From Ophelia neglecta (Eukaryota), in the NCBI GenBank assembly GCA_965285935.1, contig OZ260662.1, positions 58,900,001 to 58,964,000 of the forward strand: a DNA stretch of 64,000 nucleotides. Direction: 5' to 3'. A program made the position numbers and the translations under genes. Of this stretch, positions 10,301-61,205 are shown piece by piece. The notes under the pieces are model-generated. The model was not told where the DNA came from. It saw nothing but the letters and a program-made list of their open reading frames with translations, and did no database searches. Each line of letters opens with the position of its first letter. Position 1 is the stretch's first letter.

Positions 10301-13071
10301 TGTACCGTCGATGACAGGAAGGATCGCTTCACCAAGGAGCAAGAAGTTATCGGACTCCTGGGAGCTGATCGTGGAGAGGCATTTAGCACGCATTTTCGCT
10401 ACGTGAATCTAGTAAAAGACAATATTTGATTCATTTTACATTCATATCAATATATATTGTACAGTACTTTATGCTGGTATTACGCACGTGCCTTTCTATG
10501 ACGTAATAATTTGACGTAATTTCCTACGTGTATATCAACATTTATCGATATTTTAAATATTTTGACATTAGAAGATTTGTAATCCCCGAAGAAGGCTGAA
10601 GCAGCCGATAGCTTGGAATAAAGCAATTCTATTTACACCTGTTTCGGATCTTCATCCTTACCATGCACCATTTTTAGTACAGGTGTGCACAGCAGACATC
10701 TACTTCTACTTTTATTGGCACCCCATGTGGTGGAGATTATTCTAATCTTTTTGTAGACTGGGAGGAGGAAAACATCAGAAACGAATACCTTGGAAGACAA
10801 CCTGAACTCCTCAAACGCTATGTCAATGACAATTGTGGAGCAACTACTATGCCTATGGAATAGCTCAAGAAGTATTTGAAATTTGTCAACAGCCACAATG
10901 AGAACATCAAATACACCTTCATCACATGTGAAGAGGCCATCCCTATGATGGACACAACGCTTTACGTAAAGGACCGAAAAATTGAATCCACCATCTATTA
11001 CAAGGGAACAGACAGCCACTCCTACCTCAAATTTGATTCTGAACACCCGAATAGCTTGAAGAAGAGTATTCCCTACTCGTAATTCTTAAGACTAAGAAGA
11101 ATAGTGTCAAGCAATGCAGATTTCCAAGCAAGAGCCCAGGAAATGAAGCTTTTCTTTCTGAATAGAAATTACCCACATCGAATCGTGTCAGATGGATTGA
11201 GAAAAGCCAGCTCTTAAGTCAGAGAGGATCTCCTAAAGGATAAGCCAAGACAGAACTATGAAAAAGACCTTTTAACTTTTCCTATTACCTACAACAGCAT
11301 CATCCGTAAGATTGTAAAATCAGTACTAACCTACTACATCATTCTCCAGAAAGACTGGTCGAGAGATTAATCAATGATCCGAGTAACGTAAAAAATTCAA
11401 CGAAAATTGCCAGACATTTTGATGAAACTGGTCATAGCGCTGATGACGTGTGAGAGGGGGCAATTTGTTCCGTCGATGACAAGGAAGGATCGCTTCACCA
11501 AGGAGCAAGAAGTTATCGGACTCCTGGGAGCTTATCGTGGAGAGGCATTGAGCACGCATTTTCGCTACTTGAATCTAGTAAAAGACAATATTTGATTCAT
11601 TTTACATTCATATCTATATATATTGTACAGTTCTCTATGCTGGTATTGTGTTTGCATGGCCTATCTACTATCTTGCCGCATTTACGCACGTGCCTTTCTA
11701 TGACGCAATAATTTGACGTAATTTTCTACGTGTATATCAACTTTTATCGATATTTTCAATATTTTGACATTAGAAGATTTGTAATCCCTGAAGAAGGCTG
11801 AAGCAGCCGATAGCTTGGAATAAAGCAATTCTATTTACACCTGTTTCGGATCTTCATCCTTAACATGCACCAAATCAGATAAAAGTTTCTACAAACAACT
11901 CAGCAAGGAAGATATTAGGACTCATCAACTACACCATTCTCCAGAAAGACCCTCTTGTCGGTTAAGCCTTTCAAATTAAACCCTAAATCGCCTACCGACG
12001 AGGCCCAATAATTGGCAAAGCAGTGATCAACACCTAAATTCACCAAAGCACAGACGACGACATCAAAGGCACCTTCCCATGCAAAACATGCTTTCATACC
12101 AACTCAAACCCTCTCATAAATGGACCGAAAGGACATATTACAGCTAAAGAACGTTTCTCGTGCGAATCGAAAGCAGTTGTGTACGCTATATCTTGTGAAC
12201 TATGTGGCCAAATTTACATTGGCGAGACTGGTCGGCGCCAAGCAGACAGGTTCGCCCAACATTGCAATCTGGTCGAGAGATTAATCAATGATCCGAATAA
12301 GGTAAAAAAATTCAACGAAAATTGCCAGATATTTTGCTGAACCTGGTCAAAGCACTGATGACGTGAGAGTTGTGGCAATTTGTACCGTCGATGACAGGAA
12401 GGATGGCTTCAGTAGTAAAGTATAAATCCTGAGCTTTCCCTGTGTCGCTTCACCAAGGAGCAAGTAGTTATCGGACATTTGGAAGCTTATCGTGAAGAGG
12501 CATTGAACACGCATTTCGCTACGTGAATGTAGTAAAACGCAAAATATTTAACTCATTTTACATTAGAAGATTTGTAATCCCTGAAGAAGGCTGAAGCAGC
12601 CGATAGCTTGGAAGAAAGCAATTTTATTTACACCTGTTTCGTATATTCAACCATGCACCAAATCAGATACAAGTTCCTACAAACAACTCAGCAAGGACTA
12701 TATTGGGACTCATCAACTACACCATTCTCCAGAAAGACCCTCTTGTCGGTAAAGCCTGTCAAATTAAACCCACAATCGACTACCGACGAGGCCCAACAAT
12801 TGGCAAAGCAGAGATCAACACCTAAATTCATCAGATAACAGACTATGACATCAAAGGCACCTTTCCCTGTGACACACCATGCAAAACATGCTTCCATACC
12901 AACTCAAGCCCCCTCATTAATGGACCGAAAGGACATATTACAGCTAAAGAACGTTTCTCGTGTGAATCGAAAGCAGTTGTGTACGCTATATCTTGTGAGC
13001 TATGTGGCCAAATTTACATTGGCGAGACTGGTCGGCGCCAAGCAGACAGGTTCGCCCAACTTTGCAATGTG

Positions 13072-13697
13072 TATATCAAGAGCACTTATCTATGTCATTG
13101 AGTGTCATAAGTGCGGACACATCTATGTTGGAGAAACTGGACGAAGATTGGGAGATCGTTTCGTGGAACACAGACTGTCAGTCATAAAAAAAGATCAATC
13201 AAAGGCTGTTGGAGAACACTTCTCTTCCAATGGACACAACGTAGAAGACATGAAAGTTTGTGGCCTACTCAGTGTGGTGGACATTAACAGAAGAAAACTC
13301 CTGGAACAAAAAATAATCGGCAAACTGGGATGCTTACAGGGACTCGGAGGCATGTATATTGACTTTAATTTTATGAGTGTTAATTAGTGCCTTTTCGTTC
13401 ATTTTGGACAACTGTACTCACTTTCCTGACGTTTTTGGTTCTCTGCATTATTAATCTGGTACTTTTTGTTTTGTTTCTTCTACTATTTTCTCTTTCATTT
13501 GTCATTTACCGCATTTTGTCGCGAGTTTCTATGTTTGACGTCATTAACGACGTAATTTGGTTTTTGACGTCATTTCCTATAACATTTTTTTGAATTTGCT
13601 CATTTAGATTTTTTGTACCTTGAGGAAGGCTGCATCAGCCGAAACGTCGGTCTATTAAAGTTTTAACACCCGTTGGACATCTTTTTACTTCATTTTA
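13072..13697 (+). mobile_element. Penelope family B, 5'-truncated (GIY-YIG + 3'UTR + pLTR, no tail)
   Basis: CISRALIYVIECHKCGHIYVGETGRRLGDRFVEH...; TSD TTTGCAATGTG at 13061-13071 and 13698-13708. Confidence 0.9.
13617..13651 (+). ncRNA. Minimal hammerhead ribozyme, family B; also at 17401(+), 59590(+), 15447(-), 59527(-), and mutated at 61425(-)
   Basis: ACC-TTGAGGA-A-GGCTG-CAT-CAGCC-GAAACGTC-GGT: helix I ACC/GGT, 5-bp helix II, palindromic ACGT helix III, GUC cleavage triplet. Confidence 0.75.
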
Positions 13698-13937
13698 TTT
13701 GCAATGTGGTCGAGAGATTAATCAATGATCCGAATAAGGTAAAAAATTCAACGAAAATTGCGAGATATTTTGCTGAACCTGGTCATAGCGCTGATGACAT
13801 GCGAGTGGGGGCTATTTGTACCATCGATGACAGGAAGGATGGCTTCAGTATTAAAATATAAATCCTGAGGTTTCCCTGTGTCGCTTCACCAAGGAGCAAG
13901 AAGTTATCGGACTCTTGGGAGCTTATCGTGGAGAGGC

Positions 13938-14403
13938 CAAAAAATTCTTGGAAAATCCCTGAGTTCACTCCTGTGTCTCCGCTAATGTTTTATATGGAAT
14001 TACATGCATTACATGTGGCAAACTTTATATTGGAGAAACCACGCGCCGCCTTTCAGATAGAAGAGAGATATATGTAGGTTCTCTGTGCACCACCTAATTA
14101 TGCAATAAAATGAAATAAAAAGATGTCCAACGGGTGTTAAAACTTTAATAGACCGACGTTTCGGCTGATGCAGAAAGATTTCGAGAACATCTCAGGGACA
14201 TTAGAAAGTCGATAAGAGCCTCACCGGTCGCCCAACATTTCACCAGCACAGGACATTCCATCGATGATGTTAGCATAACTGTGCTTAAACAATGTGCTAA
14301 TGATATTGACAGAAAAGCCCTCGAAATGAGGCTAATCCATAAACTTGGTACCCTTGACCCTCATGGTATGAATTTAGACTTCACATACAAGGTTTGAATA
14401 CCA
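13938..14403 (+). mobile_element. Penelope family C, 5' half (GIY-YIG) of the copy split by the DIRS element
   Basis: CVSANVLYGITCITCGKLYIGETTRRLSDRFREH...HGMN; collinear with the uninterrupted copy at 62668-62931. Confidence 0.9.
14060..14170 (-). mobile_element. Family B tail plus partial pLTR mini-insertion within the family C GIY-YIG
   Basis: Matches 15355-15465. Imperfect TSD CAGATAGA/CAGAAAGA; empty site visible at ~62723-62730. Confidence 0.8.
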
Positions 14404-14476
14404 AATTCTATCTCACCTCCCCAGTCTACGTCACTCTAGTAATCACACGAAGATCACAGCAGCTGAGCATCATCAT
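14404..14476 (+). repeat. DIRS left terminus / left ITR
   Basis: 14404-14448 is complementary to ICR 58341-58385; 14440-14476 is complementary to 58555-58591. Confidence 0.9.
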
Positions 14477-15354
14477 TACACAGTTAGCTCTTGAGCAGTG
14501 CACATGTGTGGACCAGTGCTCCGTTAGTGAAATCTCAACTACGTGGCCCAAGGAGGACTTTTCACTGTAGGATAACTTTCTTGTGTTTGTATCACCTGTT
14601 TTGTGTTGAATTCTGTTCCTCCCCTACTTTGCAATGGCTACTATTACTGAGCCTGTATTGCTCAACCCAAATGAGATTGAGCAGCATCCCAATGAAATGA
14701 TGGGCATGCTGGCCAACCTGACTGGCTCCCTTGACAAGATGACCGGCTTTATGGAAAAGCTGGGCAAGGCCTATGAGTCCCTTGCAGCCCCCAAAAAATA
14801 GAGCCAGAACAGAGTTGGCGTTAGGTAACAATAGCGATCAACATTTGGATGATGCTATACTTAAGGACGAGGAAGACTTAAACAGTCTACTCTCCCATGA
14901 TAACCCCTCTGAACCTCAACCTGTTCTTATGGATTGTGAGGAAAAAGAAAATGAGGGCGATGATGGGGATATAGATGTCTTAAATGACATTTGTGATGAA
15001 TTAGAAATGTCTGAAAAAATTTTCATCAAACGTCTCAGAAAAACTTGCTAAAATCGTAAATGCAAGATTTGACAGGAAATTGTCATTTGATCTCCTCAAG
15101 GAGAAGCTTGATAAACACCACCGGCCTAAAAATGGTGAGAAAATGTTAGTGCCTACATTAAATGAAGAGGTAAAGTCATCGATTAATCTGTTGCAGAACA
15201 AAAGAGATCAAAGGCTGGCCCATCTGCAAAAGGCTGTAGTAAACTCAGCTCTAGCGGTCACCACTATGACACAGATGGCCCTCTCTGGCAAAAAAGAATC
15301 CCAGTCCGTTGATTGGGAGAAACTTGTCATTGCTGGCACAGATGCTATAGCTAT

Positions 15355-17482
15355 GAAGAGAGATATATGTAGGTTCTCTGTGCACACCCTAATTATGCAA
15401 TAAAATGAAGTAAAAAGATGTCCAACGGGTGTTAAAACTTTAATAGACCGACGTTTCGGCTGATGCAGCCTTCCTCAAGGTACAAAAAATCTAAATGAGC
15501 AAATTCAAAAAAAATGTTATAGGAAATGACGTCAAAAACCAAATTACGTCGTTAATGACGTCAAACATAGAAACTCGCGACAAAATGCGGTAAATGACAA
15601 ATGAAAGGGAAAATAGTAGAAGGAACATAACAAAAAGTACCAGATTAATAATGCAGAGAACCAAAAACGTCAGGAAAGTGAGTACAGTTGTCCAAAATGA
15701 ACGAAAAGGCACTAATTAACACTCATAAAATTAAAGTCAATATTCATGCCTCCGAGTCCCTGTAAGCATCCCAGTTTGCCGATTATTTTTTGTTCCAGGA
15801 GTTTTCTTCTGTTAATGTCCACCACACTGAGTAGGCCACAAACTTTCATGTCTTCTACGTTGTGTCCATTGGAAGAGAAGTGTTCTCCAACAGCCTTTGA
15901 TTGATCTTTTTTTATGACTGACAGTCTGTGTTCCACGAAACGATCTCCCAATCTTCGTCCAGTTTCACCAACATAGATGTGTTCGCACTTATGACACTCA
16001 ATGACATAGATAAGTGCTCTTGATATACAGGTAAATTTGTCCTTGATGTTAAAAAGTCCTTTTGGTCCCTGTATACTTTTTGCTGGTTAACATAAGAGCA
16101 AGTATAGCAACGGGGTCTACCACAGGAAAAAGTGCCGGCTTCTGGATGGGACGGCTTGGTGTTGGCATGGACTAACATATCTCTTAGGTTACTACCCCTT
16201 TTGTAGGCGACCAAGGGGCGTGATTGGAATACGTTGTGGAGTTCTTCGTCCTCTGAAAGAATAGAAAAGTTCCTCTGTATTATCTTCGCGACCTTCTTAT
16301 TGATCTCGTTGTGGATTATAGGGAATGTTAATGGTAGCTTGTTCTTATCATTTGGTGTTTGTAGTATTTCTTCCCTTGAGAATTTTTCGGCTCTCCTCAA
16401 TCCTTTCATGATGATCTTCCTGGGGTATCCCCGCTGTTGAAAAAAGTCTATCATGTTCCTTGCTTCTCCTTGGAACTGTTCTTCTCTAGAGCATATCTTC
16501 CTCAGGCGCAGAAATTGAGAATATGGAATGCTGTTTTTGCATGCCACTGGATGGTCAGATTCATATAGTAGGTATGAATGAGTATCCGAGTCTTTATAGA
16601 AAATTCCCGAGTGTATTTGATCTTTTTCAATTGATAAAATAGTGTCCAGCATATTAACAGTCTTGTCCGATATCACTGCTACGTATTCTATGTGGGGGTT
16701 ATGCATGTTGACGTAAGATACATATTTCTCTAGGTCTTCTCGGCTCATTGACGTCGCTCCGAAAATGTCGTCTATGTAGCGCTTCTGGAGCTCTGGTTTA
16801 GGACCTTGATACGAAAGGTTAATTTTTTCTTCCTCGTGACCGATAAACAAACAGGCGTACTCTGACCCGAAGCAAGTTCCCATCATGGTTCCTCCAATTT
16901 GAGTGTAGAAGTCTCCTTCAAACTGGAAACAGTTGACCGTAAGGACCAGTTCTGCGAGACGTAGAATAGTAGCTGTGCTTATATTTCTCTGAGATGTGGG
17001 ATCCCTTTGGTCGAGGAAGTGTTTGAGAGCTAAAAGTCCATCACTATTGGGTATGTTAGTGTAGAGGCTCTTGATATCCATAGTGAAAAGCAAGTTGTTA
17101 TTGTCTGTTGGGAAGCGAAACGGCTTGGTGATATTCAAGAGATGGTTGGTGTCTTTGATGAAAGAAGGCAATTCTTGAACAATTGGTTTCAAGAGTTCAC
17201 TCAAATATTTAGAAATCAAATATGTAGGACACGAAATACTGGTACTTTTTGTTATGTTCCTTCTACTATTTTCTCTTTCATTTGTCATTTACCGCATTTT
17301 GTCGCGAGTTTCTATGTTTGACGTCATTAACGACGTAATTTGGTTTTTGACGTCATTTCCTATAACATTTTTTTTGAATTTGCTCATTTAGATTTTTTGT
17401 ACCTTGAGGAAGGCTGCATCAGCCGAAACGTCGGTCTATTAAAGTTTTAACACCCGTTGGACATCTTTTTACTTCATTTTAT
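15355..17482 (-). mobile_element. Penelope family B, 5'-truncated, with inverted upstream pLTR
   Basis: Tail+pLTR+3'UTR at 15355-15711, ORF to ~17238, inverted pLTR ~17238-17482; TSD TGCTATAGCTATG at 15343-15355 and 17483-17495. Confidence 0.93.
15712..17238 (-). pseudogene. Penelope-like RT + GIY-YIG polyprotein (Neptune-like), one frameshift near 16080
   Basis: MDIKSLYTNIP, QIGGTMMG, RYIDDIF, YKDSDTHSYL, CGRPRCYTC, then IYVIECHKC..IYVGET in the other frame. Confidence 0.92.
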
Positions 17483-18000
17483 TGCTATAGCTATGTTGGG
17501 GCATGTAACTAATGAGCTATGCCCACATAGAAAATACCAGCTAAAGCCTGCCCTTAGCCCCGAATACCAGCACCTCTGTAATCAGAGTACAGAAGTAACT
17601 TCACTCTTGTTTGGTGACAACCTGAACAAAGCCATGGCTGATGCAAAACAGGTGGCCAAGCTGGGAAAAAAGGCAACAGGCCAAGGACAGCAGTCAAAAA
17701 ACTGGCAGGGCAAGAACCGGCAGAAATGGAACCCAAATTTCAACAGGCACAAAAACAAAAACAGGTCCAACCAATACAGAGGACACAAACCCAACAATGC
17801 CAGCTCAAGCGGCCAGTACAAACAGAAGGGCCAATAGTCGAGGTAAGGACTAATCATGCTTGTAATTGGACCTACTGGTGTTTTATGGCATCAGTTGATC
17901 TGAAAGATGCATACTATTCTGTCCCTATTGCAGAAGAACATCAAAAGTATCTCAAATTTGAGTGGGAAGGACAATTCTTCCAATACACCGTTTTTCCAAA

Positions 18001-21000
18001 TAGTCTGGGCAGATTCTGGGAAAATGTGTATATTTAAAGTGGTGGAGGCATTTCATGTTTACGGCTGGCAAACATCATTTTTAGATGTATTTTTACATTC
18101 TTAATCGATCTAGAGGGTTTGCCAGAGTCAATTTTCAGCCGTTAACTCACAAACGTGATAAATCCAAAATGGCCGCCACCGAAATATGAAAACCTTATTT
18201 TTGTCATATCTTTGGAACAAAAAATGGTATAAACATAAATAAAGCATCATATTGTATGTTTTCAGGTACAAGGAATCCATTGAGACCATTATTAACGCTT
18301 TAATATTTCAAGAAATCAAGATATATACCATATTTGGGCAAAACATATCACCGACTGTGTCGAAAATGGTCATGTCTTTTATTCATATTGTTGATATCAG
18401 ACATGGTAAGAACATAAATGAAACATATTTTTTGTATGTTTTCAGGCACTAGATAGAAATCCATTAAGACTGCCATTTAGCAAGTAAATTTATATTGCCC
18501 ACCATTGGACTTTTTTTACTATTATACCTGTTCAAATAAGCATTGATTGGTTGTGGGCATATGACCAACTCACCAGAAATGTTAATTACGATCAACCCAA
18601 ATGGTTGTACTGATTGACCTTGTGCTTGTTCCTTTTTTGTTGTTGTATGCAGTTGTTTTTTGTAATTTGTTTTATATGTAACACATTTCATTTTAACAAC
18701 TTTGAAACAAATGTTCCCGTTTCTCAAGGAAGATGGAGATGTCATTTATTACATTGGGAATGATTTGTATTGGACACATATTTGTCATTGTGTAATTTTA
18801 GTAACAAAATAAATGTTGTTCCATTTAATGTTCCGGGAATATGTCATGTAAATGTGACTACAACTGAACCTCATGTGCGCCTGTACCATAAAGGCATCTG
18901 TCTTTGTTTGAGCATTTAATTTGTACCAATGGATTCAGATCAAGCATCAAGGAAGCGGGGATTGCTAATAGATTATGGCTAGCCTAAACATTCTTTTATA
19001 GAGCGCGGTTTAGTCGGCTTAAATTGTCATTACACTGTGACAGCTCCATGCTCTCAAGACGGATTCACAATAGGCCTACCAAAGAATGTACAGGTCTGTT
19101 TTCCGACTAAAGAGGTCACCGTAGTATGAACACCAACTGGGCAACAGCGGTTTGGGCGGAAGTCAGGGAATATCAAAATCGGAAGCTCCTGTCTCAACAA
19201 GTTGTTTGTGTGAGCTTTGCTTATTTGAGCAGATGTGTACACCGGAAGTAGTACATATATAGGTCAGAGGGGATACTCTAGTACTTGGAAGTTTGTAGAT
19301 AGTCAGGTAGGAACTTAAGCTCAGTAGTATACATTATATATTAAATACTAGACTGGTTATAAAAGCAATATTACAACATGCCGGGCAACATGCCTTTCTT
19401 AAAGATAGCTTCAGAGCATACAATATTAAAAGATTTTACAATGTTCATTTCGCATTTCAGCTGGTACACTCTCATTTTTATCATTATACATAAGGGGGAG
19501 AGGCCTCGGTAGTGCCAGACTGAATGGCTTCTGAAATATTGCTTCAAGAGGCTTGTGATCTGTGTGTATTGTTACTGAGCGGCCAAATACATATATATGC
19601 ATAGTTTCTCATAAGCATGGAGTAAAGCAAGTAGTTCTCTCTCAATATTGGTCCCTTTTCTTTGGAGGTCAACGACTTACGTTAAAACTGGACCGTTTTC
19701 CTCTTTGAAGCAACACAGTGCCGAGTCCCTTGAGCGAAGCATCTGTTTCTATAGTAACTTGCAGGCCAGGGTCGAAGTGCACTAGTTTAGTGATCTCTGT
19801 TTTCACTTTCTGAGTCTTCTCGATCCCTGCTGCATCTCAGCTGTCCGTACATAGTGGACATCTTTCTTCAACAATCCCCTCGTGCTGAATGTCATCTGAG
19901 CCAGTTTGGGCATGAAGTTGGCCATGAAGTTGACCGAGCCAAGGAAACTCTATAGCTCCTGCTTGTTCTCTGGCGGCGACATTTCTTGGATGTCCTGGAC
20001 TTTGTCCAGGGCTGGTTTCACGCCATCAGTTGATATCATTCGGCCGAAGTAATCAATGCTGGTTTTCTCGATGCAGAATTTATTTGGGTTGAACCTGATA
20101 CCTGCGTTCTTGGTTCTACGTACAGTCTCAAATAGGTGGATTTCCTGCCTTTCTTCCGTAGAACCCTGTACCTTCACGTCATCGGCACAGCTTGTCCAAT
20201 TCCAGTTTGAATTTGTTCTGTGTATCAAGTGGAATAGCGCGGGGTGGAAGCTGCACTGGCTCGATATCAGGATTCACTTTAAGATGTGCTTCGCCCTCAA
20301 AAAGTCCCACAGAACCATCAAACATCTCTGGGAAAATGTTCATCAAGTCCTTCTGCGGGTCTCCTGTTATCTTGCCTAGTGGCAGGTATTCCTTCCCCTT
20401 ATGCTTAAGCGTGCTGTAATCTACCTCTGTCTCCTCTGTGGCATGCACAGCTTCTACTTCAGCATTGATGTTCCTCAATGTACATATTTCTGCAAAGGTG
20501 ATGAGTTTGAAATGGGTACAAAAATCTACACCAAGAATCAGTTCAGTGCCGAGTTCTGTGATTATAATGCTGATGTTGTGTGTGTGATCATAACACTTGA
20601 CCCTGGTAGTCAGTACCCCTTTAGCTAGTAAGTCTGTACCAGTAACACCTCGTAACTTCACCTGTGTCGGTTTCAAACAGTGTTCTCCAAGGTGGAAATC
20701 TTTTAGCATATGAAGTGGCATACAAGTGGCTCCTGTATCCAACTTTCCTGCGACATCACCTCTCGGGGTTGTCTCCACGATACCAATGTTAATTGTATTA
20801 TAAAAGTCATCGTCATCACTTTCACTACACAATGTGACAGCTCTAGTCTTCTGAGTTCTGTGGGTCCTTTTTCGAAGACAAGCTTTCTCGAAGTGCCCTT
20901 TTCGGAAACAGAAGTCGCATTCAGCTACATGGGCTGGGCTGTTCTCGCGAATGTGTTGTGATGCAGAGCAACATTTACATCTCCTGTCCCCCCTGCTATC

Positions 21001-22175
21001 TGTTCCTCTGTGATCGTGAAAGGATTCCGCTGGTGGTGTGTATAGAGTGTGCCTTTTCTGTCGGTTACCTCTTTGTTGTGGACGACGTGGCGGTTCGTGA
21101 GAGTATGAAGCGCTAACCTGTATTTCACTGATTTTTTTCATTGTGACATCAAGGGACTCAAACTGTCTGAGGAGACCCAGACATGTCTTGACTTATACAT
21201 CTTTGTTCTTCACCATAAGCTTTTTCTTGGCTTCAGTGTTGATACATCCATTTATCAGTTTGTCTGCAATCAAAAAGATAGATTCGGCTGGGAACGCAGC
21301 TGGTCTATGTAGCTCAACAAGGCGGCTATAGCAACTGTTAGTATTCTACTTTCTATTTAACATTGTAGAAATCTTCACGCGCTTGGTGATGAATGTCGGA
21401 ACATTTTGCCTGAATAAAGTCACTTAATGGTCCTTTATAGACAATAGTAATGGAAAACTGGTAGCTTTTTTGGTAGCTGCATTCCTGTTTAACATTTGTT
21501 TATAGTGGTCAATGAAAAATATACGTACATTTATGTAAATAGTATAGCCGCATCAGTTCTAGTAGTCTATACTCAGTATATCCCTCATTGGAATCATAAC
21601 ATAAAGATAAAATTAAGTTCCTTTTTCAAGTTAGTATATTAGATGCAACCACTAATAAAAATTTGCCCAAATATGGTGTATATCTTGATTTCTTGAAATA
21701 TTGAGGCCTTAATAATGGTCTCATTGGATTCCTTGTACCTGAAAACATACAAAATGATGCTTTATTTATGTTTATAACATTTTTTGTGCCGAAGATATGA
21801 CAAAAATTAGGTTTTCATATTTTGGTGGCGGCCATTTTGGATTTGCCCTAATATGACATCAATCTTGATTTCTCGGACTATTGAAGATTTATTAAAGGTC
21901 TCAATAGATTCCTTTTCACCTGAAAACATACAAAATGATGCTTTTTTTATGTTTCTATCATTTTTGGTGCCAAAGATATGACAAAAATTAGGTTTTCATA
22001 TTACAGTGGCGGCCATTTTGGATTTACCATGTTTGTGAGTTAACGGCTGAAAATTGAGTCCGGCATACCCCCTAGATCGATTAAGAATGCAAAAATACAT
22101 CTAAAAATGATGTTTGCCAGCCGTAAACATGAAATGCCTCCACCATTAACATTTTCTGAATACTGGCCTAGTCTA
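18001..22175. mobile_element. Non-autonomous TIR DNA transposon, Academ-like (TAG...CTA termini, 3-bp TSD AAA), inserted in the DIRS RT
   Basis: Long imperfect TIRs (18001-~18342 vs ~21662-22175, with ~180-bp subrepeats carrying CAAAATGGCCGCC). Removing it restores TTTCCAAACGGCC as in the other RT copies. Superfamily inferred from termini and TSD only. Confidence 0.7.
19500..21330 (-). mobile_element. Decayed Gypsy (Mag-like) LTR retrotransposon gag-pol remnant
   Basis: Tandem Zn knuckles (CKCC...H; CDFCFRKGHFEKAC), protease LDTGAT, RT ADDVKVQG...IDYFG, RNaseH ETDASLKGLG and TDHKPL; internal deletions; no LTR pair recognised. Confidence 0.8.
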
Positions 22176-22178
22176 AAA

Positions 22179-24345
22179 CGGCCTAAGAAGCTGTCCTCGA
22201 GATTTTACCAAGTTGCTTAAGCCAGCTTATGCCGAATTACGCCGGCAAGCGAATCAATCTGTGGCATATATGGAAGACTCATTTTTACAAGGTGAGCAAA
22301 AGGCTGACTGCCAGTTAAACGTGCTTCACACAGCTGAGATGATCTCATCCCTCGGTTTTATTATACACCCTGAAAAATCAGTACTTGTCCCAACTCAGAT
22401 AATTGAGTTCCTGGGCTTCCTGTTGGACTCAATCAACATGGTAGTAAAACTGACCCCACACAAAGCTACTGTTGTAAAACAGGCATGTGAACATCTCATG
22501 TCAAAGAATCTTCCCACAATTAGGGAAGTTTGTGTGGTTATAGGCAAATTAGTGGCTAGCTTTCCTGGAGTACTAATGGGACCACTTCACTATAGAACAA
22601 TAGAGACTGACAAAACTGCAGCTTTGAAGCTAAACAAGGGGAACTTTGATGCCACCATGACTTTATCACAAGGGGCCATTTCTGATTTGCAGTGGTGGAC
22701 TCAGCATGTTGAAACTGCTTTCAAACCAATTTCTCATGGTGAACCAGATGTTGTTCTCACCACAGATGCAAGCCTTAAAGCCTAGGGTGCCTTTAATAAA
22801 ACCAACTCACATTCAGCCCAAGGGGAATGGTCAATTAATGAAGCATCGAGTCAAATCAATGTTCTAGAACTAAAAGCAGCTCTTTTCGAACTGAAATCTC
22901 TCAGTGCTGTCTTGACAAATAAGCACATCAGACTTATGGTTGATAACATGACTGCTGTGGCTTACATTAGAGAGATGGGTGGGTGCAAATCCCATGATTG
23001 TGATCTTATCAGCCTAGAAATCTGGCAGTGGGCTTCTAGAAGCCTGTTTCCAGAAGCCTGTGGATCAGTGTAGCCCGTATTGCTGGAAAAGACAACATTG
23101 AAGCTGATATATTATCCAGAAAGTTTGATCATGAAACAGAATGGATGTTAAACCCACAAATGTTTAGAAATGCAATCAATTTGTGCCAGTTATAACCTAA
23201 GATTGATCTCTTTGCCTTCTAGAATCAACTGTCAATTGCCTACTTTCTTAGCTTGGAAACCTCAGCCAAATGCTTTTGCAATTGATGCTTTCTCAATTAA
23301 TTGGTCATTACTTGATTTTTACGCTTTTCCGCCTTTCTCTGTCATTTCTTTGGTTATACTAAAAGTCTTACATGAGAAAGCAACAGGAATCATTGTTATT
23401 CCCTACTGGCCGACTCAGTAAAATGAAGTAAAAAGATGTCCAACGGGTGTTAAAACTTTAATAGACCGACGTTTCGGCTGATGCAGCCTTCCTCAAGGTA
23501 CAAAAAATCTAAAATGACTCAGGCCTGGTTCCCATCTGTCATACATCTGTTGTGTGATTTCCCAATTTTGCTTTCTAGGAGCCGGTCATTATTGACCCTG
23601 CCGAGCAATCCACACAAAACACATCTATTGCACAAGAAGCTAGATCTACTGATGTGCTACATATCGAGGCAAACATCCAAAGTCAGGGACTTTCAACAAC
23701 GGCTAGAAATCTCATTCAGGCATCATGGAGACCGTCCACGAAAAAACAATACATCCCCTACTTACGGCGGTGGGAAATTTATTGCCATCAGAGGAAAATC
23801 AATAAAATTAAAAGTTCTGTGACTGATGGAATTAATTAACTTGGCTGAACTTTATAATACCGGAATTGGATAAAGTGCTATCAGCACCGCTCGTTCGGCA
23901 CTATCAACAGTTCTGCCGACTGTGGACCGAATAAATTTTGGCAAAGACCCCAATGTGACAAGGCTTTTAAAAGGAGTCTTCAATAAAAGACCTTCTTTGC
24001 CAAGGTTTCCAGCAATTTTTGATGTCAACATCTTATGATTCATTTTAAAAATATACCACTTTACCTGATCCCACTCAAGGAACTTTCTACAAAATTAGTA
24101 ATGCCGCTCGCTCTATTAACTGGGCGTGTGCAGACTCTCGTGGCTATCAAAACGGACAAGCTAACTTGTAAACCTACAAAGTGTGTTATCACAATTGATT
24201 CCGTATTAAAAACATCGAAGCCAGGGCGGCACATCAAGCCTATTGAGCTTTTGGCCTTTGAGGATGAAACATTGTCCCCTGTAAAGCATTTACAGAAATA
24301 TCTTGATTCAACATCTTCACTAAGGGGGAATGAGACCAAACTATT
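22179..24345 (+). pseudogene. DIRS unit 0: RT 3' part (YMED), RNaseH, MT and truncated YR
   Basis: Continues from 17878-18000 across the TIR element; stop at 22785. Confidence 0.9.
23419..23515 (-). mobile_element. 97-bp hammerhead-only family B insertion in the DIRS MT domain; copies at 26157-26253, 40531-40627 and 43269-43365
   Basis: 7-bp TSD GACTCAG; empty site present in the other nine units. Confidence 0.92.
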
Positions 24346-24488
24346 GGTGATGAGGCTATTTTCAAGTTGAATGTTGATCAAATATTGCTGAATGCAATTA
24401 ACAGTGTAAAGAAGTTTAAGGCTGGCCGGCTTAAGCACTTTGTAAACAAGTGGTAATCTCTAACAACTGATAAAGAGATCATTCAAAT

Positions 24489-28553: not shown

Positions 28554-28682
28554 CCCGTATTGCTGGAAAAGACAACATTGAAGCTGATATATTATACAGA
28601 AAGTTTGATCATGAAACAGAATGGATGTTAAACCCACAAATGTTTAGAAATGCAATCAATTTGTGCCAGTTAGAACCTAAGA

Positions 28683-29060
28683 TTGATCTCTTTGCCTTCT
28701 AGAATCAACTGTCAATTGCCTACTTTCTTAGCTTGGAAACCTCAGCCAAATGCTTCTGCAATTGATGCTTTCTCAATTAATTGGTCATTACTTGATTTTT
28801 ACGCTTTTCCGCCTTTCTCTGTCATTTCTTTGGTTATACTAAAAGTCTTACATGAGAAAGCAACAGGAATCATTGTTATTCCCTACTGGCCGACTCAGGC
28901 CTGGTTCCCATCTGTCATACATCTGTTGTGTGATTTCCCAATTTTGCTTTCTAGGAGCCGGTCATTATTGACCCTGCCGAGCAATCCACACAAAACACAT
29001 CTATTGCACAATAAGCTAGATCTACTGATGTGCTACATATCGAGGCAAACATCCAAAGTC
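28683..29060 (+). pseudogene. DIRS N6-adenine methyltransferase-like domain (present in every unit, out of frame with RT)
   Basis: (I)DLF/xSRINCQLP...IDAFSINW...YAFPPF...IPYWPTQAWFP, the typical DIRS MT motif set. Confidence 0.8.
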
Positions 29061-29155
29061 AGGGACTTTCAACAACGGCTAGAAATCTCATTCAGGCATC
29101 ATGGAGACCGTCCACGAAAAAACAATACATCCCCTACTTACGGCGGTGGGAAATT

Positions 29156-52793: not shown

Positions 52794-54116
52794 ATGGTCA
52801 AAGGCTACCATATTCCCTTTAATGCTTCCCCAATACAATTAAACCTGCCTAAGAAAAAGGTTTTTTGTGCACGGGAAATGACTTTGATTACAAATGAAGT
52901 ACAGTCACCTTTAGAAAAAGGGGTTATAGAGAAATGTAGCAGAGAACCTTGGGATTTTGTCTCTAACATTTCTACTAGGGAGAAAAAAGATGGTTCGAGT
53001 AGGATTATCTTGAATGTTAAAAAACTGAACATGTATGTGGATCATACCCATTTCAAAATGAAGACGCTATTGACAGCAATAAGGTTAATGAAATCAGGAT
53101 GTTTTATGGCATCAATTGATCTGAAAGATGCATACTATTCTGTCCCTATTGCAGAAGAACATCAAAAGTATCTCAAATTTGAGTGGGAAGGACAATTCTT
53201 CCAATACACCGTTTTTCCAAACGGCCTAAGAAGCTGTCCTCGAGATTTTACCAAGTTGCTTAAGCCAGCTTATGCCGAATTACGCCGGCTAGCGAATCAA
53301 TCTGTGGCATATATGGATGACTCATTTTTACAAGGTGAGCAAAAGGCTGACTGCCAGTTAAACGTGCTTCACACAGCTGAAATGATCTCATCCCTCGGTT
53401 TTATTATACACCCTGAAAAATCAGTACTTGTCCCAACTCAGATAATTGAGTTCCTGGGCTTCCTGTTGGACTCAATCAACATGGTAGTAAAACTGACCCC
53501 ACACAAAGCTACTGTTGTAAAACAGGCATGTGAACATCTCATGTCAAAGAATCTTCCCACAATTAGGGAAGTTTGTGTGGTTATAGGCAAATTAGTGGCT
53601 AGCTTTCCTGGAGTACTAATGGGACCACTTCACTATAGAACAATAGAGACTGACAAAACTGCACCTTTGAAGCTAAACAAGGGGAACTTTGATGCCACCA
53701 TGACTTTATCACAAGGGGCCATTTCTGATTTGCAGTGGTGGACTCAGCATGTTGAAACTGCTTTCAAACCAATTTCTCATGGTGAACCAGATGTTGTTCT
53801 CACCACAGATGCAAGCCTTAAAGCCTGGGGTGCCTTTAATAAAACCAACTCACATTCAGCCCAAGGGGAATGGTCAATTAATGAAGCATCGAGTCATATC
53901 AATGTTCTAGAACTAAAAGCAGCTCTTTTCGAACTGAAATCTCTCAGTGCTGTCTTGACAAATAAGCACATCAGACTTATGGTTGATAACATGACTGCTG
54001 TGGCTTACATTAGAGAGATGGGTGGGTGCAAATCCCATGATTGTGATCTTATCAGCCTAGAAATCTGGCAGTGGGCTTCTAGAAGCCTGTTTCTAGAAGC
54101 CTGTGGATCAGTGTAG
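52794..54116 (+). CDS. DIRS RT-RNaseH ORF, unit 11
   Basis: Same motifs as unit 1. Confidence 0.8.
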   Translation: MVKGYHIPFNASPIQLNLPKKKVFCAREMTLITNEVQSPLEKGVIEKCSREPWDFVSNISTREKKDGSSRIILNVKKLNMYVDHTHFKMKTLLTAIRLMKSGCFMASIDLKDAYYSVPIAEEHQKYLKFEWEGQFFQYTVFPNGLRSCPRDFTKLLKPAYAELRRLANQSVAYMDDSFLQGEQKADCQLNVLHTAEMISSLGFIIHPEKSVLVPTQIIEFLGFLLDSINMVVKLTPHKATVVKQACEHLMSKNLPTIREVCVVIGKLVASFPGVLMGPLHYRTIETDKTAPLKLNKGNFDATMTLSQGAISDLQWWTQHVETAFKPISHGEPDVVLTTDASLKAWGAFNKTNSHSAQGEWSINEASSHINVLELKAALFELKSLSAVLTNKHIRLMVDNMTAVAYIREMGGCKSHDCDLISLEIWQWASRSLFLEACGSV

Positions 54117-55415
54117 CCTGTATTGCTGGAAAAGACAACATTGAAGCTGATATATTATCCAGAAAGTTTGATCATGAAACAGAATGGATGTTAAACCCAC
54201 AAATGTTTAGAAATGCAATCAATTTGTGCCAGTTAGAACCTAAGATTGTTCTCTTTGCCTTCTAGAATCAACTGTCAATTGCCTACTTTCTTAGCTTGGA
54301 AACCTCAGCCAAATGCTTTTGCAATTGATGCTTTCTCAATTAATTGGTCATTACTTGATTTTTACGCTTTTCCGCCTTTCTCTGTCATTTCTTTGGTTAT
54401 ACTAAAAGTCTTACATGAGAAAGCAACAGGAATCATTGTTATTCCCTACTGGCCGACTCAGGCCTGGTTCCCATCTGTCATACATCTGTTGTGTGATTTC
54501 CCAATTTTGCTTTCTAGGAGCCGGTCATTATTGACCCTGCCGAGCAATCCACACAAAACACATCTATTGCACAAGAAGCTAGATCTACTGATGTGCTACA
54601 TATCGAGGCAAACATCCAAAGTCAGGGACTTTCAACAACGGCTAGAAATCTCATTCAGGCATCATGGAGACCGTCCACGAAAAAACAATACATCCCCTAC
54701 TTACGGCGGTGGGAAATTTATTGCCATCAGAGGAAAATCAATAAAATTAAAAGTTCTGTGACTGATGGAATTAATTAACTTGGCTGAACTTTATAATACC
54801 GGAATTGGATAAAGTGCTATCAGCACCGCTCGTTCGGCACTATCAACAGTTCTGCCGACTGTGGACCGAATAACTTTTGGCAAAGACCCCAATGTGACAA
54901 GGCTTTTAAAAGGAGTCTTCAATAAAAGACCTTCTTTGCCAAGGTTTTCAGCAATTTTTGATGTCAACATCTTATGATTCATTTTAAAAATATACCACTT
55001 TACCTGATCCCACTCAAGGAACTTTCTACAAAATTAGTGATGCTGCTCGCTCTATTAACTGGCCAGCGTGTGCAGACTCTCGTGGCTATCAAAACGGACA
55101 AGCTAACTTGTAAACCTACAAAGTGTGTTATCACAATTGATTCCGTATTAAAAACATCGAAGCCAGGGCGGCACATCAAGCCTATTGAGCTTTTGGCCTT
55201 TGAGGATGAAACATTGTCCCCTGTAAAGCATTTACAGAAACATCTTCACTAATGGGGAATGAGACCAAACTATTGGTGATGAGGCTATTTTCAAGTTGAA
55301 TGTTGATCAAATATTGCTGAATGCAATTGACAGTGTAAAGAAGTTTAAGGCTGGCCGGCTTAAGCACTTTGTAAACAAGTGGTAATCTCTAACAACTGAT
55401 AAAGAGATCATTCAA

Positions 55416-56714
55416 ATGGTCAAAGGCTACCATATTCCCTTTAATGCTTCCCCAATACAATTAAACCTGCCTAAGAAAACGGTTTTTTGTGCACGGGAAA
55501 TGACTTTGATTACAAATGAAGTACAGTCACTTTAGAAAAAGGGGTTATAGAGAAATGTAGAAGAGAACCTTGGGATTTTGTCTCTAACATTTTTACTAGG
55601 GAGAAAAAAGATGTTTCGAGTAGGATTATCTTGAATGTTAAAAAACTGAACATGTATGTGGATCATACCCATTTCAAAATGAAGACGCTATTGACAGCAA
55701 TAAGGTTAATGCAATCAGGATGTTTTATGGCATCAATTGATCTGAAAGATGCATACTATTCTGTCCCTATTGCAGAAGAACATCAAAAGTATCTCAAATT
55801 TGAGTGGGAAGGACAATTCTTCCAATACACCGTTTTTCCAAACGGCCTAAGAAGCTGTCCTCGAGATTTTACCAAGTTGCTTAAAGCCAGCTTATGCCGA
55901 ATTACGCCGGCAAGCGAATCAATCTGTGGCATATATGGATGACTCATTTTTACAAGGTGAGCAAAAGGCTGACTGCCAGTTAAACGTGCTTCACACAGCT
56001 GAGATGATCTCATCCCTCGGTTTTATTATACACCCTGAAAAATCAGTACTTGTCCCAACTCAGATAATTGAGTTCCTGGGCTTCCTGTTGGACTCAATCA
56101 ACATGGTTGTAAAACTGACCCCACACAAAGCTACTGTTGTAAAACAGGCATGTGAACATCTCATGTCAAAGAATCTTCCCACAATTAGGGAAGTTTGTGT
56201 GGTTATAGGCAAATTAGTGGCTAGCTTTCCTGGAGTACTAATGGGACCACTTCACTATAGAACAATAGAGACTGACAAAACTGCAGCTTTGAAGCTAAAC
56301 AAGGGGAACTTTGATGCTACCATGACTTTATCACAAGGGGCCATTTCTGATTTGCAGTGGTGGACTCAGCATGTTGAAACTGCTTTCAAACCAATTTCTC
56401 ATGGTGAACCAGATGTTGTTCTCACCACAGATGCAAGCCTTAAAGCCTGGGGTGCCTTTAATAAAACCAACTCACATTCAGCCCAAGGGGAATGGTCAAT
56501 TAATGAAGCATCGAGTCATATCAATGTTCTAGAACTAAAAGCAGCTCTTTTCGAACTGAAATCTCTCAGTGCTGTCATGACAAATAAGCACATCAGACTT
56601 ATGGTTGATAACATTACTGCTGTGGCTTACATTAGAGAGATGGGTGGGTGCAAATCCCATGATTGTGATCTTATCAGCCTAGAAATTCTTTTAGAAGCCT
56701 GTGGATCAGTGTAG
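55416..56714 (+). pseudogene. DIRS RT-RNaseH, unit 12 (most diverged, several frameshifts)
   Basis: Split ORFs 55631-55942 and 55926-56714. Confidence 0.8.
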
Positions 56715-57184
56715 CCCGTATTGCTGGAAAAGACAACATTGAAGCTGATATATTATCCAGAAAGTTTGATCATGAAACAGAATGGATGTTAAACCCACAA
56801 ATGTTTAGAAATGCAATCAATTTGTGCCAGTTAGAACCTAAGATTGATCTCTTTGCCTTCTAGAATCAACTGTCAATTGCCTACTTTCTTAGCTTGGAAA
56901 CCTCAGCCAAATGCTTTTGCAATTGATGCTTTCTCTATTAATTGGTCATTACTTGATTTTTACGCTTTTCCGCCTTTCTCTGTCATTTCTTTGGTTATAC
57001 TAAAAGTCTTACATGAGAAAGCAACAGGAATCATTGTTATTCCCTACTGGCCGACTCAGGCCTGGTTCCCATCTGTCATACATCTGTTGTGTGATTTCCC
57101 AATTTTGCTTTCTAGGAGCCGGTCATTATTGACCCTGCCGAGCAATCCACACAAAACACATCTATTGCACAAGAAGCTAGATCT

Positions 57185-58128
57185 CACGAGGCAAACATCC
57201 AAAGTCAGGGACTTTCAACAACGGCTAGAATTCTTATTCAGGCATCATGGAGACCGTCCACGAAAAAAACAATACATCCCCTACTTACGGCGGTGGGAAA
57301 TTTATAGCCATCAGAGGAAAATCAATAAAATTAAAAGTTCTGTGACTGATGGAATTAATTAACTTGGCTGAACTTTATAATACCGCTCGTTCGGCACTAT
57401 CAACAGTTCTGCCGACTGTGGACCGAATAACTTTTGGCAAAGACCCCAATGTGACAAGGCTTTTAAAAGGAGTCTTCAATAAAAGACCTTCTTTGCCAAG
57501 GTTTTCAACAATTTTTGATGTCAACATCTTATGATTCATTCTAAAAATATACCACTTTGCCTGATCCCACTCAAGGAACTTTCTACAAAATTAGTGATGC
57601 TGCTCGCTCTATTAACTGGCCAGCGTGTGCAGACTCTCGTGGCTATCAAAACGGACAAGCTAACTTGTAAACCTACAAAGTGTGTTATCACAATTGATTC
57701 CGTATTAAAAACATCGAAGCCAGGGCGGCACATCAAGCCTATTGAGCTTTTGGCCTTTGAGGATGAAACATTGTCCCCTGTAAAGCATTTACAGAAATAT
57801 CTTGATTCAACATCTTCACTAAGGGGGAATGAGACCCAACTATTTATAAGTCACTGTAAGCCACATTTGCCAGTTAAAATTGACACTATCCGCAGATGGA
57901 TTGTTTCTATCATGGCTGAAGCCGGAATAGACACTAATGTGTATTCAGCCCATAGCAGCCGAGCTGCTAGCACGTCTAAAGCAGCAAAACATGGGGTTGC
58001 CAGTTGACTCAATCCTGTCCTGTGTAGGCTGGAGTAAAGCAACAACTTTTGCAAAGTTTTATCATAAAGACATAACTGTCAGTCCTGAAAATACACTAAG
58101 CTCCCATATTTTAAATGGGTGTTATTGA
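57185..58128 (+). pseudogene. DIRS tyrosine recombinase; the only copy with the catalytic C-terminus (frameshifted)
   Basis: LALLTGQRVQ (R), KTSKPG (K), AHSSRAAS (HxxR), GWSKATTFAKFYHK (W, Y). Confidence 0.9.
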
Positions 58129-58340
58129 ATGTCGATTGCTTTTTGGATATCATTTTTTCCTTCATATAAGAGGTGTATTACACTTAGTTTACATGATAAA
58201 CAGATTGCTTATTGATAGTTGATATATACAAGCTCTTTACCCTTATTTAAGTTTGTGTTGTTGTTCTTATCAAATAACGTTAAATTTTTGGCATTGAATG
58301 CTCTGGTACACCTCATGCTAACCTTAGCTTTCAAATCTTT

Positions 58341-58470
58341 GTGTAATTACTAGAGTGACGTATACTGGGGAGGTGGGATAGAATTACAAAATTAAACGAG
58401 ACTTACCTGTAAGTCGAAGTTTGATTGGGATTCTATCGAATCTCCTCAGTCAGGAACGAGTAATCACACG
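58341..58470 (+). repeat. DIRS internal complementary region (ICR)
   Basis: 5' half is complementary to the left end and 3' half to the right extension 58582-58670; the halves overlap at AATT 58382-58385. Confidence 0.92.
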
Positions 58471-58554
58471 CCCTCCCTGTGAGTTCCCCTACCCAGGTAG
58501 ATTACTTGTTCCTGACCATAAAATTTTAAGGTTAACATTCGGTCCTTTTCAATC

Positions 58555-58670
58555 ATGATGATGCTCAACTGCTGTGATCTTCGTGTGATTATTCGTTCCT
58601 GACTGAGGAGATTCGTTAGAATCCCAATCAAACTTCGACTTACAGGTAAGTCTCGTATAATTTTGTAATT
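58555..58670 (+). repeat. DIRS right ITR and right extension
   Basis: ATGATGATGCTCAACTGCTGTGATCTTCGTGTGATTA is the reverse complement of 14440-14476 with 1 mismatch. Confidence 0.92.
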
Positions 58671-59115
58671 ATTTGTTCTTGTGTTTAGATTACTTCGGCC
58701 GCATAAGTATATGGCATGATTTTTCTATATTCCTGATGTCTGACTGTTTCCCACCGGGCCGGTGTTTTCGTTTCTGTTTTTGTTTAAAATAACACTCCTT
58801 TCTATGTTTCTATTAATTGTTTTATGTATATCTTTACCTTGGTTTCTATGGTAACCATGTCTGTGTGCTAATTGTAACCTTTGAAGCTATATATACCGTG
58901 ATTACTACATCAATGTATCTCTTGAATGTGAGTGTTTTTTGTTGCCTTGATTTGTCTGTGATCCGTTTGCCAATTATGCACGTGATACCGGGTGATGCAA
59001 TGTGCGTCATGTATACATTTAGAACTTGAATTGAAATAAACGCCTGAAGAAGTCCAGATGGACGAAATATCGCAAATTGGATTTTATCTGTGTCTTATTT
59101 AATTTTTCTCTATAA
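58671..59115 (+). mobile_element. Penelope family C, 3' half (3'UTR + pLTR) of the DIRS-split copy
   Basis: Collinear with 62932-63375. Confidence 0.9.
59042..59073 (+). ncRNA. Minimal hammerhead ribozyme, family C
   Basis: GC-CTGAAGA-A-GTCC-AGAT-GGAC-GAAATATC-GC. Confidence 0.75.
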
Positions 59116-59127
59116 ATGACAATAATC

Positions 59128-61205
59128 ACAAACCCACAATCGCCTACCGACGAGGCCCAACAATTGGCAAAGCAGAGATCAACACCTTAATTCACCAGAG
59201 CACAGTCGATGACATCAAAGGCACCTTCCCCTGTGACACACCATGCCAAACATGCTTTCATACCAACCCAAACCCTCTCATAAATGGACCGAAAGGGCAT
59301 ATTACAGCTAAAGAACGTTTCTCGTGTGAATCGAAAGCAGTTATGTACGCCATATCTTGTGAGCTATGTGGCCAAATTTACATTGGCGAGACTGGTCAGC
59401 GCCTAGCAGACAGATTCGCCCAACATCGCAATCTGAAGAGAGATATATGTAGGTTCTCTGTGCACACCCTAATTATGCAATAAAATGAAGTAAAAAGATG
59501 TCCAACGGGTGTTAAAACTTTAATAGACCGACGTTTCGGCTGATGCAGCCTTCCTCAAGGTACAAAAAAGGCTCATTTTGATTTTTTGTACCTTGAGGAA
59601 GGCTGCATCAGCCGAAACGTCGGTCTATTAAAGTTTTAACACCCGTTGGACATCTTTTTACTTCATTTTATCGCAATCTGGTCGAGAGATTAATCAATGA
59701 TCCGAGTAGCGTAAAAAATTCAACGAAAATGCCAGACATTTTGCTGAACCTGGACATAGCACTGATGACGTGAGAGTGGGGGCAATTTGTACCGTCGATG
59801 ACAAGGAAGGATCGCTTCACAAAGGAGCAAGAAGTTATCGGACTCCTGGGAGCTTATCGTGGAGAGGCATTAAGCACGCTTTTTCGCTACGTGAATCTAG
59901 TAAAAGACAATATTTGATTCATTTTACATTCATATCTATATATATTGTACAGTAATCTATGCTGGTATTGTGTTTGCATGGCCTATCTGCTATCTTGCCG
60001 CATTTACGCACGTGCCTTTCTATGACGCAATAATTTGACGTAATTTCCTACGTGTATATCAACATTTATCGATATTTTAAATATTTTGACATTAGAAATT
60101 TGTAATCCCTGAAGAAGGCTGAAGCAGCCGACAGCTTGGAATAAAGCAATTCTATTTACACCTGTTTCGGATCTTCATCCTTACCATGCACCATATCAAA
60201 TACAAGTTCCTACAAACAACTCAGCAAGGACTATACTAGGACTCATCAACTACGCCATTCTCCAGAAAGACCCTCTTGTCGGTAAAGCCTTTCAAATTAA
60301 ACCCACAATCGCCTACCGACGAGGCCCAACAATTGGCAAAGCAGAGATCAACACCTAAATTCACCAGAGCACAGACCATGACATCAAAGGCACCTTCCCC
60401 TGTGACACACCATGCAAAACATGCTTCCATACCAATTCAAGGCCTCTCATTAATGGACCGAAAGGACATATTACAGCTAAAGAACGTTTCTCGTGTGAAT
60501 CGAAAGCAGTTGCTTACGCCATATCTTGTGAGCTATGTGGCCAAATTTACATTGGCGAGACTGGTCGGCGCCAAGCAGACAGATTCGCCCAACATCGCAA
60601 TCTGGTCGAGAGATTAATCAATGATCCATGTAAGCTAAAAAATTCAACGAAAATTGCCAGACATTTTGCTGAACCTGGTCATAGCGCTGAAGACATGAGA
60701 GTGGGGGCAATTTATACCGTCGATGACAGGAAGGATCGCTTCAGTAGTTAAATATAAATCCTGAGCTTTCCCTGTGTCGCTTCACCAAGGAGCAAGAAGT
60801 TTTCGGACTCTTGGGAGCTTATCGTGGAGAGGCATTAAGCACGCTTTTTCGCTACGTGAATCTAGTAAAAGACAATATTTGATTCATTTTACATTCATAT
60901 CTATATATATTGTACGGTAATCTATGCTGGTATTGTGTTTGCATGGCCTATCTACTATCTTGCCGCATTTACTCACGTGCCTTTCTATGACGCAATAATT
61001 TGACGTAATTTCCTACGTGTATATCAACATTAATCGTTATTTTAAATATTTTTGACATTAGAAGATTTGTAATCCCTGAAGAAGGCTGAAGCAGCCGATA
61101 GCTTGGAATAAAGCAATTCTATTTACACCTGTTTCGTATCTTCATCCTTACCATGCACCATTTTTAGTACAGGTGTGCACAGCAGACATCTTCTTCTTCT
61201 TTTAT
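59128..61205 (+). mobile_element. Two tandem family A internally deleted copies ending in pLTR+tail
   Basis: Same organisation as 3550-4480; hammerheads at 60106 and 61073. Confidence 0.85.
59435..59671. mobile_element. Family B mini-element: tail+pLTR (minus) and inverted pLTR (plus), forming a 90-bp inverted repeat
   Basis: Arms 59480-59569 and 59582-59671; TSD ATCGCAATCTG at 59425-59435 and 59670-59680. Confidence 0.9.

Follow-up and report, generated by a model that had tools for sequence, protein, structure and literature searches.

The stretch of DNA analysed here, referred to as the window, comprises 64,000 nucleotides of Ophelia neglecta (contig OZ260662.1, positions 58,900,001 to 58,964,000). 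It corresponds to C2:58.90-58.96 Mb, where C2 and similar labels denote contigs, and positions given without such a label are window coordinates. The window is a nest of three Penelope-like families, which we call A, B and C, together with a DIRS-like element. Our subject is the repeated insertion of family B at one site in the endonuclease gene of family A (Table 1).

Judged by their sequences, A, B and C are endonuclease-positive (EN+) Penelope-like elements. One open reading frame (ORF) joins a reverse transcriptase (RT) to a C-terminal GIY-YIG endonuclease, as seen in an intact A ORF of 976 amino acids and in a 646-amino-acid part of the B ORF with the motifs DKG, YV/IDD and GIY-YIG; family C is known in pieces only. 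Both A and B carry pseudo-long terminal repeats (pLTRs) with tandem or inverted copies and a one-sided tail. The endonuclease domains of all three families have a CxxC before YIG/YVG and downstream histidines, and a CX2-5CxxC linker lies upstream of GIY-YIG (GTFPCDRPCKTC in A, GTFSCGRPRCYTC in B and GTFPCNRSRCLTC in C). The Pfam GIY-YIG model PF01541 matched B at E=7.8e-5, in the inverted arm of the copy in DIRS gag, and A only at 0.046, while the RT part of B had no Pfam match. Since a PDB sequence search with the B endonuclease returned no real match, the DRF arginine is presumed catalytic by analogy with I-TevI and from a published residue list. A TGAnGA-stem-GAAA core was seen by eye in B and may resemble a minimal hammerhead; an Rfam search of positions 11700-17600 for hammerhead ribozymes gave no match. 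An intact 976-codon A frame between identical pLTRs lies at C9:59824577-59827686 and is a candidate for recent activity, as are copies of B.

The two B insertions in the A endonuclease gene (sites 1 and 2) are each flanked by an 11-nt target-site duplication, and they differ in target allele and in insert structure, as a first-pass annotation of this DNA had stated. That annotation placed both at the codons DRFAQ-H-R-N-L. The position is indeed homologous, but the host at site 1 translates as DRFAQ-L-C-N-V. Insert 1 terminates at RNA start site I (...TTCATTTTA) and shares 98.9% identity with the B sequence at 15399-16029. An in-frame A-B chimera is excluded here, as the frame of the B part differs from the A endonuclease frame. 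Insert 1 (at 13070) and an unrelated B insert at C7:97170863 are 5'-truncated at most one base apart in the endonuclease gene, perhaps reflecting a preferred stop or a short template. In insert 2, an inverted arm (59436-59569, minus strand) terminates at tail site II and a forward arm (59571-59669) at site I. Besides the control listed in Table 1, a second empty copy of the A site lies at 12261.

A third B insert, reported in the annotation about 20 nt from the homologous position in family C, was confirmed as a single arm with an imperfect 7-nt duplication (CAGATAG/CAGAAAG). A codon count from the sequence puts it 18-22 nt upstream of the position corresponding to the A site. Its site is empty in a counterpart at 62723 and in three contig runs of one sample. 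Two B insertions in the DIRS-like element, one in gag and one in a region that the annotation named MT, were likewise verified. The gag insert has a long inverted arm (15356-17240, with RT and GIY-YIG) to site II and a short forward arm to site I. The other was multiplied to 26157, 40531 and 43269 by tandem duplication and represents one event.

Table 1. Family B insertions, their targets and associated features in window coordinates.
Feature	Position	Strand	Remarks
Left target-site duplication, site 1 (TTTGCAATGTG)	13061-13071	+	In the GIY-YIG code of A, with the context AAC-N11-GTC
Right target-site duplication, site 1 (TTTGCAATGTG)	13698-13708	+	
Family B insert 1	13072-13697	+	5'-truncated forward copy: endonuclease 3' part, 3' untranslated region (UTR), pLTR
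A copy hosting insert 1 (host 1; pLTR end, linker, GIY-YIG)	12547-13937	+	Interrupted by B insert 1
Left target-site duplication, site 2 (ATCGCAATCTG)	59425-59435	+	At the A codons H-R-N-L
Right target-site duplication, site 2 (ATCGCAATCTG)	59670-59680	+	
Family B insert 2	59436-59669	.	Inverted arm and forward arm
Empty family A site (control)	60594-60604	+	
Family B insert 3	14061-14173	-	Single inverted arm to tail site II; family C GIY-YIG code, RRLSD/RFREH junction
Family B insert in DIRS gag	15343-17495	.	13-nt duplication, 15343/17483
pLTR of B inserted in the DIRS-like element, downstream of RNase H	23412-23522	-	7-nt duplication, 23412/23516
A pLTR end joined to A hot spot H1	60189-60210	+	KQLSDTSSY codons, AAC-N12-GTT
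Tandem array of family A fragments	1988-12564	+	Period ~2078 bp
Tandem array of DIRS-like fragments	22176-58670	+	RT, RNase H, tyrosine recombinase

Among 48 A copies in the examined regions, 47 retain the site, of which four are filled; TTTGCAATGTG is not found in any of the 43 empty copies, and two substitutions private to site 1 are present in both of its duplication copies. Upstream of the site, 20 of 285 bases differ between the hosts of sites 1 and 2, and a phylogenetic tree placed host 1 as sister to the empty copy with its site at 60594 (support 95/91). A third insertion at the A site was found on C9 (59805465-59805613), with the same duplication and with B reversed, and has been duplicated once nearby. 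Because target alleles, insert structures and hosts differ, and because the C9 hit has the opposite orientation, the insertions at 13072 and 59436 are independent, and the same 11 letters of A were hit three times independently. The double insertion proposed in the annotation is therefore borne out. For the 13 independent B-into-A events, 100,000 coverage-weighted simulations produced a cluster of three or more hits in 0.3% of runs and one of five or more in none.

The hottest target of B lies in the RT-side region of A, at positions 1059-1070 of the A monomer. At this hot spot, H1, 7 of 14 copies are filled, by five independent events on five chromosomes; the events differ in junction letters and hosts and include both orientations. 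The pLTR end of A itself is also joined at H1, and this junction recurs at 12656 and inside the 2078-bp array.

Twenty-six two-ended B events, picked by hand, were used to define the target. Duplications were 11-13 nt long in 22 of them. Next to the duplication, position -1 was C in 20 events and position -3 was a purine in 25; the opposite flank mirrors this pattern, and the consensus is the bipartite palindrome RAC-N11/12-GTY. This bears out the earlier suggestion that B has a sequence preference. A symmetric model was trained on the 21 non-A events, excluding the four A sites and the event with a 7-nt duplication. Its score of 5.5 exceeded those of all 300 random sets (mean 2.7), and it ranked the A site 4 and H1 20 among 6176 candidate cut pairs, raising the A site ~80-fold. 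Both belong to only six strict motif matches in the 3110-nt A monomer, and the single strict match in family C has also been struck by B. The loose form RNC-N11/12-GNY was found in 16/26 events against 5.6% by chance, and the strict form in 7/26 against 0.5%. In held-out one-ended tail junctions (n=22), the far half-site was enriched (P=5e-5). None of the 26 two-ended B targets was a microsatellite.

That A shares this motif is not supported: its 10 two-ended targets scored little above random under the B model (P=0.14). GAT, AAT or GTT frequently stands just before two-ended A targets, which suggests a related but different half-site. At C9:59827688 and C5:38446013-38446266, the B 3' UTR has received both A and B at one site or immediately beside it.

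The inserts of A and B each have two sharp 3' end classes, ~46 nt apart. In inverted two-ended inserts, end I always occurs with end II, in 19/19 listed pairs of B (18 independent) and in 10/10 pairs of A. The ends of B overlap its RNA by 1-4 nt; the mean for end I is 1.9 nt (n=23) and that for end II 2.5 nt (n=16), against 0.3-0.4 nt by chance. The pLTR-tail RNA of B folded no better than shuffled sequences (z=-0.07).

Families A, B and C share a small number of places in the genome. Of 94 exact matches to the B pLTR, 82 fall in seven loci totalling ~0.64 Mb, a ~1000-fold concentration. These islands also hold 77 of 84 A matches, the other seven being at most 1 Mb away, and all 26 C matches lie in islands or at most 2 Mb away, with none on C8. 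Among the matches listed, the islands are clusters of young nested elements, one per chromosome. They measure 60-180 kb, and each of the seven chromosome-scale contigs, which together make up 97% of the assembly, carries one (P ~0.005 under length-based placement). All are interstitial, at relative positions of 0.17-0.82. One satellite family, with 983 exact matches of one word and a unit of ~0.9/1.4 kb, forms arrays of at least 150 kb that adjoin the islands on C1, C2, C7 and C8, among the matches listed. We suggest that the seven islands are probably the centromeres.

The satellite arrays lie at C1:74.673-74.823 Mb, C2:59.08-59.30+ Mb, C7:37.35-37.51 Mb and C8:70.527-70.80+ Mb. Their unit is ~895 bp, with variants of 1390-1412 bp on C1 and C2, and none of the 94 exact B matches lies inside the array stretches seen. 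At least two further Penelope-like families occur in the islands and have also been struck by B (C5:38420754-38421339, C7:37545126-37549400 and C8:70444710-70445400). Tandem arrays of another GIY-YIG family, with an open frame of 1197 codons, lie far from the islands at C8:12.037-12.052 Mb and C5:50.09-50.11 Mb. The search pattern for DIRS was imperfect and detected near-exact copies only; of 11 places where it showed DIRS termini, five are island places, so these termini are enriched in the islands, not confined to them.

Several accounts of the repeated junctions compete with target preference. One or two ancestral events might have spread between islands by duplication, gene conversion or retrotransposition of a chimeric A-B transcript. 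Tandem and inverted duplications are abundant in the islands, the C9 hit itself occurs twice, and the eight A copies in the window form one local clade with mosaic variants. Yet the orientations are opposite, arm lengths and junction letters differ, and both duplication copies at site 1 share their private substitutions. At H1, the hosts on C1 and C9 match their empty neighbours and differ from each other at 6/208 bases. Descent of the insertions at 13072 and 59436 from one event, which the first-pass annotation had itself raised, is ruled out by the tree, in which their hosts are not sisters; for the junctions as a whole, we regard common descent as extremely unlikely. The annotation inferred a preference of B that happens to hit the conserved Arg helix of other Penelope endonucleases, with element-on-element targeting as a possibility; on that view, B would have evolved to cut the code for this catalytic helix and so disable its rivals. 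We examined this with B junctions from B-rich regions and outlying copies: 122 B ends, 100 of them distinct by script, were merged by hand into 58 island-core events and 20 events outside, sites 1 and 2 having been merged by script and then separated by hand. GIY-YIG code received 10/58 island insertions against 7.1 expected from island composition, which is no significant excess (P=0.17, or P=0.19 with tandem copies collapsed), and within A alone it took 5/13 B hits against 27% of coverage (P=0.26). Against this background, the lack of enrichment is the outcome that the annotation had itself named as refuting its proposal. The three hits at one A endonuclease site do fit such targeting, as do B hits in the endonuclease code of four families, namely A, B, C and one more. 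Among 23 insertions into Penelope coding DNA, 10 are in the endonuclease part against 30-33% expected, a small excess (P=0.12-0.20). Conversely, the strongest hot spot, H1, lies outside the endonuclease, B has inserted into its own endonuclease three times, and 35/58 island events fall outside Penelope coding DNA. None of the 20 outside events touched Penelope code, despite the dispersal of GIY-YIG families other than A, B and C over the genome. The remaining B endonuclease hits are scattered across the domain. The insertion in C, which had been taken as part of a homologous-site pattern, is within chance: the probability that one of seven other endonuclease hits lies at most 25 nt away is ~0.56, and the C site has its position in common with the A site but little sequence similarity. 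Targeting of rival elements is thus largely refuted, and we consider it very unlikely.

Cuts might instead be random, with insertions surviving only where the cut end pairs with the B RNA start (ATTGCA-like), a version of the microhomology priming that the annotation had offered as an alternative. The RNA overlaps above chance fit this, and the first six letters of both window duplications resemble ATTGCA, so short pairing to the RNA start does contribute; as a sole cause it fails. The strongest signal is at -1 and -3, outside the duplication and unpairable with the RNA at end I, the duplication keeps to 11-13 nt in 22/26 events, and the same site is used in both orientations. RNA pairing helps but cannot account for the motif, because the signal lies outside the duplication, and microhomology alone appears improbable. 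A different objection concerns the islands, which may be not centromeres but piRNA (PIWI-interacting RNA)-cluster-like regions or low-recombination graveyards that tolerate insertions. Three of the seven have no adjoining satellite array in our probes, and the DIRS family of the islands also has dispersed copies. Nonetheless, there is exactly one interstitial island per chromosome-scale contig, A and C are confined almost totally with a halo of 1-2 Mb, the copies are young and intact, and other GIY-YIG families are dispersed. The layout also fits that of Drosophila centromere islands in the portions of PMC6516634 consulted. We therefore think that graveyards or piRNA clusters are an unlikely identity for these islands.

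Two main causes of the pattern go beyond the view taken in the annotation: the bipartite motif, and the fact that A, B and C reside together in one island per chromosome. This shared residence accounts for B's frequent encounters with A and C. We consider it quite likely that B is a Penelope-like element that reused the A site because A carries RAC-N11/12-GTY there, matching a preference of the B endonuclease, and because A and B share small, likely centromeric islands, one per chromosome.

A number of points weigh against this explanation. Only 7/26 events fit the strict motif, and four of those are the A hot spots themselves. Held-out one-ended site-I junctions (n=17) showed no enrichment (P=0.36), and the held-out sites A2040 and B2633 scored poorly. 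An additive motif model assigns the A site 4.4% of hits (at least 3 of 13, P=0.018) and H1 only 0.7% (at least 5 of 13, P=3e-8). The hot spots are thus left partly unexplained, implying that another determinant exists. Concerning the islands, 8, 6 and 5 probes beside those on C5, C9 and C12 found no satellite array, host-like ORFs lie within ~20 kb of some islands, and 15/78 B events are far from any island. In addition, the searches detect young copies only, and events were merged by hand.

From these inserts we infer a dimeric enzyme and the positions of its nicks. In the proposed mechanism, the GIY-YIG dimer would nick both strands just 5' of GTY, and the paired nicks would leave 3' overhangs of 11-12 nt. 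One overhang would prime reverse transcription at start I and the other ~46 nt downstream, at start II, after which the two complementary DNAs (cDNAs) would be joined head to head. Island chromatin, likely containing CENP-A, would set the region of insertion and the motif would set the base. On a broader reading, which we hold to be evenly balanced between right and wrong, small islands shared by three Penelope-like families underlie the centromeres of this animal. B would then integrate sequence-selectively as a dimer, cleaving both strands at RAC-N11/12-GTY and priming each of them from a different one of two fixed RNA sites. Its insertion would be near site-specific at the A hot spots, one of which is filled in half of its copies.

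Comparisons with published systems refer to the parts of the cited works consulted. Inverted pLTRs, a one-sided tail, duplications of 8-10 bp and two RT starts are already known for Penelope-like elements. PAc (Poseidon of Anolis carolinensis; Frangieh et al. 2024, PMC11167929) cleaves and extends both target strands in vitro, begins synthesis at either of two RNA sites and is a predicted dimer. B resembles it in having an RT with a C-terminal GIY-YIG and two internal RT starts bounding the tail. Whereas PAc prefers AT-rich DNA (5'-ATT) and starts without target homology, B shows the bipartite RAC-N11/12-GTY, RNA overlaps of 1-4 nt and a fixed assignment of start to strand in genomic inserts. 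Like EN+ elements of the Neptune/Nematis type (Craig et al. 2021, PMC8557442; Arkhipova et al. 2013, PMC3846280), B has pLTRs, an inverted 5'-truncated copy, a tail at one end, the CX2-5CxxC linker and a CCHH motif. Its tail is ~46 nt, compared with 30-40 nt in that type, and 8-10 bp duplications are described for Adineta Penelope-like elements (PMC8557442, PMC3846280). The same literature ties the linker to a microsatellite bias, which was hypothesised for Neptune (PMC8557442), while the B targets are complex DNA with a palindromic motif. Neither hot-spot reuse nor centromere confinement is met in the consulted portions of PMC8557442 and PMC3846280.

The islands resemble those of Drosophila centromeres with G2/Jockey-3 (Chang et al. 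2019, PMC6516634), where each chromosome has one island of nested retroelements with satellite flanks and one family is common to all islands. There the shared element is a long interspersed nuclear element (LINE) and CENP-A was mapped, whereas three Penelope-like families are shared by the putative centromeres described here. A centromere atlas (bioRxiv 10.64898/2026.09.17.752431) describes similar transposon clusters, with young nested insertions on both strands, one cluster per chromosome and tandem arrays of transposon mosaics. Its worked examples are long terminal repeat (LTR) elements, the clusters here are smaller (60-180 kb), and it mentions Penelope solely among the elements that invade chordate satellite arrays less often. 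A literature search of titles and abstracts, with most subscription papers and the atlas supplements outside its reach, found no report of a bipartite Penelope target motif, of Penelope-dominated centromere islands, of single-site reuse or of three-family confinement to one island per chromosome.

The remainder of the window is largely repetitive. The 36-kb array of DIRS fragments consists of units of 2.7-2.9 kb with 274-bp sub-repeats. The DIRS-like element is split at 19400-21400 (minus strand) by a decayed LTR-retrotransposon fragment with pieces of gag, protease and RT, which is bordered by short inverted repeats of another element (18040-18452 and 21661-22145).

In the literature consulted, target choice and processing by Penelope-like elements are described as still undefined. 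The genomic inserts of family B yield a testable model in which the target is a palindrome of two half-sites, the cuts are staggered by 11-12 nt and each strand has its own fixed start on the RNA. Such an arrangement would account for an inverted pLTR whose tail is on one side only. In Ophelia neglecta, the data point to centromeres marked by Penelope-like families, not by LTR elements or LINEs.

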